Of a DNA stretch of 64,000 nucleotides, positions 34,869 through 35,332 are shown piece by piece. Positions within the stretch are counted from its first letter, which is position 1. Every line of letters begins with the position of its first letter. A model generated the notes under the pieces. It did not search any database. It was not told the origin of the DNA and saw only the letters and a program-made list of their open reading frames with translations. A program made the position numbers and the translations under genes. Source of the DNA: a virus (taxonomy: Duplodnaviria > Heunggongvirae > Uroviricota > Caudoviricetes); IMG/VR virus record IMGVR_UViG_3300021426_000080, positions 27,744-91,743 of that record; one strand, given 5' to 3'.

Positions 34869-35332
34869 CTAAGGAATAGCACCGGGCAGAACTGAGGCGC
34901 AAAGGAATGGCGCAGTGGTGGATAGAACGGTAGCGAACGGCAAAGGCAACGCGAGGCGAAGAATCGATGTGACAGGATAAGCAACGGCTTGGAACAGTTC
35001 TGAATGGCATTGCAAAGGCTTGGAAAAGCCAGGAGAAGACATGATAAGCAAAGGAAAAGCGCGGACGAGTGTAGCATAGTAATGGCAAAGTAATGCAAGA
35101 AATGGAATCGCAAAGGAAAAGCAATGACAAGACAAGAATAGTTTGAGGAGCAAAGGAATGGAAAAGCAAGGACTCGAGTCGATCTGAGTTGCGAAGGAAA
35201 CGCTGGGCAGGGAAAAGCAAAGGAATAGCACGGATCCGCATTGATGAGAACAGCAATGGAATGGCGTCGAAGGGACATTCTCTGCAAAGGCATAATCAAA
35301 TTATATTTAATTTTAGAAAGGATTTTTAACAC
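34869..35332 (+). ncRNA. purine-rich non-coding element with ~11 GCAAAGG(A/C) motifs (candidate structured/sponge RNA or iteron array)
   Basis: No + strand ORF. All three minus frames are open (pyrimidine-rich complement). Motif copies at 34899, 34941, 35012, 35049, 35086, 35111, 35151, 35193, 35217, 35285. Flanking direct repeat AAGGAATAGCAC at 34871 and 35219. Lies inside an operon between the promoters at 33550 and 35950. Confidence 0.45.

Follow-up and report, generated by a model that had tools for sequence, protein, structure and literature searches.

The window, by which we mean the whole stretch of 64,000 nucleotides of DNA that was analysed, carries a purine-rich tract placed between the stop codon of an open reading frame (ORF) for a 152-aa Cys-rich protein (34410-34868) and a 42-nt AT-rich leader, which is followed directly by the gene for a 205-aa protein. 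The features of the locus are listed below; the terms vrRNA and vipr are taken from the VIPR systems with which the locus is compared further on.

33812-33840, + strand: terminator-like hairpin and T-run (25-nt core 33814-33838, GAGGACTTGTAACTTACAGGTCCTC), the upstream limit of the array/vipr cassette
34868-35290, + strand: candidate vrRNA array, 13 handle copies delimiting 12 units of 25-41 nt
35291-35332, + strand: AT-rich leader from the last handle to the vipr ATG, beginning with CATAATCAAATTATATTTAATTTTAGAAAGGATTT and containing the ribosome-binding site AAAGGA
35333-35950, + strand: candidate vipr gene, 205 aa, predicted single-RRM RAMP (Cas7-like)
36224-36248, + strand: terminator-like hairpin, an identical 25-nt GC-rich copy with a T-run, downstream of vipr and an 81-aa ORF

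The rest of the window contains the following recognisable phage genes.

8889-10469: endolysin
14071-15123: integrase
27201-27818: HNH endonuclease
57120-61088: large DNA polymerase/primase fusion
61674-62918: helicase

These genes indicate that the window comes from a temperate phage or prophage which exceeds 64 kb and has almost all of its genes on the + strand. The relatives of the locus belong to IMG/VR and faecal phage contigs. The immediate neighbours of the array are small phage ORFs to which the searches assigned no function.

No terminator-like site was found between 33840 and 36224. Similar hairpins were seen by BLAST at several gene-cassette junctions in related loci with shuffled gene order, and the window genes at 33543-34491 sit downstream of vipr in one of these loci (L003). 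The paired hairpins may be terminators doubling as recombination boundaries. A consensus scan did not recover the promoters that a preliminary description of the sequence had assigned to 33550 and 35950.

Two small Cys-rich, zinc-ribbon-like proteins are encoded upstream of the array (34410-34868 and 33870-34094), with weak matches to zf-P11 and zinc-ribbon families. The 152-aa protein encoded at 34410-34868 adjoins the array only in the window and in L001, L002, L004 and L005, and is a possible clade-specific accessory. As for a conserved accessory (vap) neighbour, which in VIPR has a DNA-binding, nuclease or helicase domain, no gene family was common to the loci compared beyond the closest clade.

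Composition and periodicity of the array

In the region 34869-35332 the only + strand ORFs that reach 30 aa are two short ones with TTG starts, both at the 3' end (35189-35329 and 35241-35336). The three minus-strand shadow ORFs of 138, 155 and 120 aa, which leave all three frames open, were present as claimed earlier, and these frames are open because the + strand is poor in pyrimidines; the purine fraction of the tract is 0.685 versus 0.556 for the whole window. The preliminary view of the element as a non-coding, strand-specific motif array rather than a gene was thus upheld, and comparison with related phages agreed with it, since the motif array persists there and no reading frame is kept.

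The heptamer GCAAAGG, referred to as the handle, starts in its exact form at eight positions (34899, 34940, 35012, 35048, 35110, 35150, 35217 and 35284). Five further copies have one mismatch: GCTAAGG at 34868, GCAACGG at 34981, GCAAAGT at 35085, GCGAAGG at 35191 and GCAATGG at 35253. The 64-kb window contains 17 copies of GCAAAGG, eight of them in the array, against 6.8 +/- 2.5 expected, and none of the shuffled sequences reached 17. The recurrence of this heptamer noted previously was therefore real, and several of the coordinates then listed were off by 1-2 nt. The imperfect direct repeat AAGGAATAGCAC(C/G)G, reported as bracketing the element, was likewise present at 34871, with its second copy at 35220 and not at 35219.

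The spacing of the motif, previously called irregular, follows a rule. From one handle to the next, the distances in the window array measure 31, 41, 41, 31, 36, 37, 25, 40, 41, 26, 36 and 31 nt, and nine of the twelve are of the form 5k+1, because each GCAAAG hexamer shifts the register of the pentamers by +1. In nine related arrays 75 of the 102 distances equal 1 modulo 5 (binomial P 3.6e-31).

The underlying period is carried by G. The lag-5 autocorrelation of G in the array was 1.95, while 2000 shuffles gave 0.99 +/- 0.10 with a maximum of 1.35; the spectral peak of the G signal was at 5.1 nt. A pentamer path model divided the window array into 70 five-mers, 12 six-mers and one four-mer, with G at position 1 in 81 of the 83 units (98 %). 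The information content was 1.78 bits at position 1 versus 0.10-0.30 bits at positions 2 to 5, and about 80 % of the pentamers had A or C at position 2. An array unit consists of the GCAAAG hexamer followed by 4-7 pentamers of the form G-(A/C)-N-N-N. Across the nine arrays G occupied phase 1 in 92-100 % of units, with 1.5-2.0 bits at this position. The L009 array also has C at position 2 in 83 % of pentamers (1.24 bits), and both L009 and L007 have the repeat form GCNNN.

Tandem Repeats Finder returned a single 11-nt doublet as its only output for the array, because the pentamers are too degenerate. Elsewhere in the 64-kb window a second G-periodic region was sought, and only short, noisy C-phase stretches appeared, none of them comparable to the array; the region 29700-29900, considered as a further periodic region, proved to be ordinary coding sequence. 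The idea that positions 3 to 5 of the pentamers are codons was also rejected. Their occasional ATG-led look is explained by the extended handle consensus GGAATG, and in-frame stops occurred in approximately 3 of approximately 70 triplets in a hand count, as expected from the position-specific composition.

The predicted fold of the array RNA was no better than that of shuffled sequences (z +1.02), and the folding check proposed in the preliminary description revealed no set of hairpins presenting GGA. Rfam gave no match to the array region even at E <= 1. The sole Rfam match in the whole window at gathering thresholds was a tRNA gene at 11533-11598.

The RAMP-like protein and its linkage to the array

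Searches of Pfam, PHROGs, NCBIfam and PADLOC with the 205-aa protein and its neighbours gave nothing informative. The family of the 205-aa protein is large and uncharacterised, with 6482 clusters at 90 % identity and 1948 representatives at 50 % identity (E <= 1e-3) in metagenomes. An AlphaFold2 model (pLDDT 78, pTM 0.72) has a predicted core of a single ferredoxin-like RRM, without a second RRM, a predicted alpha-helical insertion at about residues 24-52 and a predicted long beta-hairpin, the thumb, at residues 129-154. The G-loop, G186-I-G-Q-W190-R191-N-S-G-K-G196-R197-F198, lies just before the last strand; across the family its Trp is invariant and its Arg is conserved in at least 90 % of members. 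According to the model, the protein would thus combine one RRM, a glycine-rich loop and a thumb, the parts that define a minimal RAMP in VIPR.

The top ranks of a Foldseek search with the model were type VII Cas7 and Csm3 (E about 1e-6), and the closest solved structures were the RNA-targeting Cas7 subunits of type III and type VII systems. The family profile also matched type VII Cas7 by sequence, via the G-loop (E 0.0016). The nearest viral model in BFVD was a 57 %-identical gut-phage protein named by its depositor 'Cas system-associated RAMP superfamily protein'. The earlier designation of the protein encoded at 35333 as RAMP-like is therefore supported by structure prediction.

A GCAAAGG array was found beside the RAMP gene and on the same strand in nine of nine IMG/VR homologue loci (50-100 % protein identity). 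The pairing of gene and array extended to all 12 homologue loci that were fetched (L001-L011 and L013, 44-100 % identity), the array being always on the strand of the gene. The array is upstream of the gene in L001-L006, L008 and L013 and downstream of it in L007 and L009-L011. L008 has two arrays, at 1629-2130 and 3290-3950, one of which is an additional array 2 kb upstream. In three phage contigs from human faeces (44-62 % identity) the pentamer arrays are likewise G-phased, and the handles are looser. Further array positions, and the two window units that recur in relatives, are listed below.

L007 4581-5010: array downstream of the vipr homologue
L009 2312-2832: array downstream of the vipr homologue
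Window 35110-35149 and 35150-35190, + strand: two recurring units, one mismatch versus L004 at 2439 and L003 at 3720

The L009 array is C-rich and nearly without GGA. The same locus has AT-rich repeats of approximately 10 nt (GTAAAATAAT / GTATTATAAG) at 430-760, about 1 kb upstream of its vipr homologue; the sequence of these repeats has no relation to that of the G-phased array.

At the nucleotide level the vipr gene of the window is 85-87 % identical to those of L003, L004 and L005, whereas the arrays do not align apart from the two recurring units, which occupy other positions in the relatives. All other window units differ by at least 10 mismatches from any counterpart in relatives, and the relatives differ from one another by insertions and deletions of whole units that preserve no reading frame. 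Judged from these alignments, the unit-level mosaic resembles shared spacers, and such turnover of array content beside a conserved gene would be the behaviour expected of guides. A comparison of the last units across loci revealed that L003, L004 and L005 keep the leader (35291-35332) in spite of their different arrays; a promoter, a ribosome-binding site or a processing signal could lie within it.

Comparison with VIPR systems and alternative explanations

According to a recent preprint, VIPR (Viral Interference Programmable Repeat) systems are mostly phage-encoded and consist of an ancestral RAMP of approximately 20 kDa, Vipr, flanked by non-coding vrRNAs (10.64898/2026.04.26.720920). The vrRNAs are described there as tandem pentanucleotide repeats (at least 4 units), canonically YNNGG (GGY/NN) with the variants NNNGG, YNNNG and NNNNG, whose variable bases follow a one-nucleotide-skip rule in pairing with dsDNA, so that competing phages are silenced (10.64898/2026.04.26.720920). 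The same preprint distinguishes seven VIPR types and several architectures, including 'staggered arrays' of abutting vrRNAs and ribozyme-interspersed arrays, and reports stand-alone vipr genes without vap (10.64898/2026.04.26.720920). The companion preprint describes Vipr as polymerising on the vrRNA, one protomer per repeat; in Vipr of phage SUSP1, G2 is held between Arg138 of the thumb and Trp178 of the G-loop, Arg179 is in contact with Y3, and His17 and Asp177 read G1 (10.64898/2026.04.26.720927).

The present locus is very probably the VIPR of a temperate phage from gut or rumen, with the 205-aa protein as a minimal RAMP of the Vipr type and the purine-rich tract as its vrRNA array. What was observed directly in favour of this identification is the set of strand-specific, G-phased non-coding pentamers, their tight linkage to a Cas7-like gene, the fast turnover of their content and the phage context. 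The locus shares with VIPR a phage-encoded single-RRM RAMP of approximately 20 kDa with a G-loop (G-x-G-x-W-R...G-R-F), a thumb hairpin and a helical insertion. Common to both are also same-strand non-coding pentanucleotide repeats with a conserved G and other positions variable (of the variant class, not the canonical one), arrays on one or both sides of the gene, a guide-like turnover of their content, and a phage context with neither cas genes nor a CRISPR array. The preliminary description had considered, among other possibilities, a repeat RNA that the RAMP-like protein encoded downstream would process, and this came close to what is now the best explanation. Its statement that the finding would be new did not hold, as VIPR systems have already been described in two 2026 preprints (10.64898/2026.04.26.720920, 10.64898/2026.04.26.720927); the locus adds a member to a kind of system published a few months before the present analysis.

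For comparison also the reference locus of Escherichia phage SUSP1 was located (KT454805, 27.5-29.5 kb), where GGTNN repeats were seen and the published residue numbering was confirmed. The SUSP1 G-loop, C-G-V-G-D177-W178-R179...G-R-F, aligns with G-I-G-Q189-W190-R191...G-R-F of the 205-aa protein. An hhalign comparison of the family profile with SUSP1 Vipr, the validated type II protein, gave a probability of 57 % and E 1.1e-4, a weak match that is confident only over the C-terminal 48 residues, and it took a permissive setting to obtain an alignment that was collinear from end to end. A tblastn search of GenBank phages with the 205-aa protein did not reach SUSP1.

The window differs from SUSP1 in several respects. 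Its repeat, G(A/C)NNN (GCNNN in L009 and L007), belongs to the NNNNG/YNNNG class and not to GGY/NN. Its units contain 4-7 repeats versus 9-16, abut one another and are punctuated by the 6-7-nt handle GCAAAG(G), and no vap gene is evident at the locus. The G1-reading residues H17 and D177 correspond to T19 and Q189 in the window protein, a replacement which, to go by the alignment, would fit a repeat consensus that has lost its first G. The approximately 30-nt pseudoknotted 3' tail and the per-guide leader of type II are absent from the window units. The search for a conserved structured 3' tail gave only the 6-7-nt handle as common to the units, with no significant structure. The missing tail rules out a type II-like layout, not VIPR as such, because other architectures, including staggered abutting vrRNAs, are reported in the preprint.

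The Cas7 family also forms the backbone of class 1 CRISPR effectors (Csm3/Cmr4, type VII Cas7, Csf2), from which the locus is set apart by a periodicity of 5 nt versus 6 nt, by guide information that would be non-contiguous, and by the lack in the window of CRISPR repeats, spacers, the partners Cas5, Cas6, Cas10 and Cas11, and adaptation genes. No CRISPR-like repeat family and no cas HMM match were found in the window, and the locus does not qualify as class 1 CRISPR-Cas, for which an array of 24-48-bp repeats with unique spacers and partner cas genes would be expected. These facts bear as well on the possibility that the array is a RAMP-bound repeat RNA with another job, i.e. an RNA-targeting effector, or a decoy or anti-CRISPR RNP mimicking or titrating host class 1 CRISPR components. 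The nearest solved structures, being RNA-targeting type III and type VII Cas7 subunits, would agree with such a role, as would the departure of the repeat code from the validated GGY/NN and the fact that a DNA target was found neither in the local search nor in the IMG/VR scans described below. However, the handle and pentamers are unlike a CRISPR repeat, rapid turnover of units on a conserved scaffold fits programmable guides better than a fixed decoy, and the only experimentally studied relatives bind dsDNA (10.64898/2026.04.26.720920, 10.64898/2026.04.26.720927). We consider another job of this kind unlikely.

The main reading in the preliminary description was a CsrB/RsmZ-like sponge titrating host CsrA (RsmA) through GGA motifs. 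Like those RNAs, the array is non-coding and has many copies of a short purine motif, and the window array is indeed rich in GGA, which occurs 5.0 times per 100 nt and forms 14 A-N-GGA sites. The motif is not conserved, however: the L009 array keeps 16 GCAAAGG handles and the periodicity but has 0.2 GGA per 100 nt. Hairpins with GGA in their loops and an Rfam match are also missing, and a sponge would explain neither the 5-nt phase of G nor the strict linkage to a RAMP gene, which makes it extremely improbable. A DNA-level iteron array was another of the earlier suggestions, and can be considered together with an origin or a packaging site; in each case a protein would bind G-phased sites each half helical turn. 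Such an array would account for directly repeated, clustered motif copies and for a mean period of 5.1-5.2 bp, close to half of 10.4 bp. Against it, the array has the orientation of the RAMP gene in every case, on whichever side of the gene it lies, and the content varies among phages whose neighbouring gene is 85-87 % identical, whereas iterons co-evolve with their initiator. Neither a replication initiator nor a terminase adjoins the array, the cumulative GC skew has no turning point in the region, and the partner protein has an RNA-binding RAMP fold in the predicted model; a DNA-level function is very unlikely. Finally, the three open minus-strand frames could suggest protein-coding sequence, on that strand or under a recoded genetic code, but these frames follow from the pyrimidine poverty of the + strand, the repeat spacing of 5k+1 is not a multiple of 3, and insertions and deletions of whole units among relatives keep no frame, so that the probability of a coding sequence is negligible.

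A periodic signal at roughly 5-nt spacing that is read by an oligomeric protein is known from the TRAP-binding (G/U)AG repeat leaders. The likeness is one of analogy only, consisting of a periodic single-base or triplet signal with an oligomeric protein reader; the protein fold is unrelated, and arrays of the type present in the window are far longer, hypervariable and phage-borne.

Proposed mechanism, targets and distribution

With the locus taken as a VIPR, and by analogy with SUSP1, the array would be transcribed on the + strand with the surrounding operon, giving short RNAs bounded by GCAAAGG handles. Vipr protomers would polymerise along the array RNA, one per pentamer, with the invariant G flipped into a pocket made by the thumb and the G-loop Trp and Arg (W190/R191). 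A predicted fold no better than that of shuffled sequences suits an RNA tract coated with protein. The variable bases of successive pentamers would serve as a gapped guide that pairs with the dsDNA of a competing phage or mobile element, the transcription of which would be repressed. The GCAAAG hexamer inserts one extra base every 4-7 pentamers, and it is probably there that each guide begins or has its boundary; this hexamer-punctuated layout may be the 'staggered array' layout of the preprint.

A more specific proposal, which we regard as doubtful, is that the clade represents a VIPR type with its own code. Each pentamer would have one protein-locked G, because the G1-reading residues have been replaced, and 3-4 bases of each repeat would be free to pair; the array would then comprise 10-16 mini-guides of 4-7 repeats delimited by the 7-nt GCAAAGG. 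If this were true, the guide length, the processing signal and the gap rule would differ from those of the published GGY/NN 1-nt-skip system. A clade code different from GGY/NN would also widen the design rules for a minimal programmable DNA binder and provide a compact multi-guide array format.

The local target search applied twelve pairing/skip rules to 48 units from all arrays, in the window and ten related loci, with shuffled-order controls; under the tested rules a unit had 8-14 specified bases. There was no excess of matches over the controls in these loci (z -1.2 to +1.3), which agrees with the absence of self-targeting reported for VIPR (10.64898/2026.04.26.720920). In IMG/VR the unit at 35150 was scanned under the canonical xNN 1-nt-skip rule (14 specified bases) and gave at least 120 matches on scattered contigs, as chance would probably give for only 14 specified bases. 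The same unit had 0 matches in IMG/VR under each of the contiguous NNN rule and the NNN+x rule (21 bases).

VIPR is proposed to be a form of RNA-guided DNA recognition that pre-dates CRISPR. For its temperate phage, the present locus is a likely module of competition between phages, and it demonstrates that a first-pass reading of sequence can flag VIPR-like systems. It adds a well-populated clade of gut and rumen phages, with 6482 protein clusters at 90 % identity, whereas the founding study comprised 2,664 sequences. In this clade the pentamer is non-canonical with one G, the handle is short and conserved, and each array consists of many very short units.

Outside these phages, runs of GTNNN with a weaker signal were seen in Hydrogenobaculum phage 1 (L014, KP282676) at 3890-4630, in an intergenic position downstream of a 24 %-identical RAMP homologue, which suggests the same pairing of gene and array in a phage of a thermophile.
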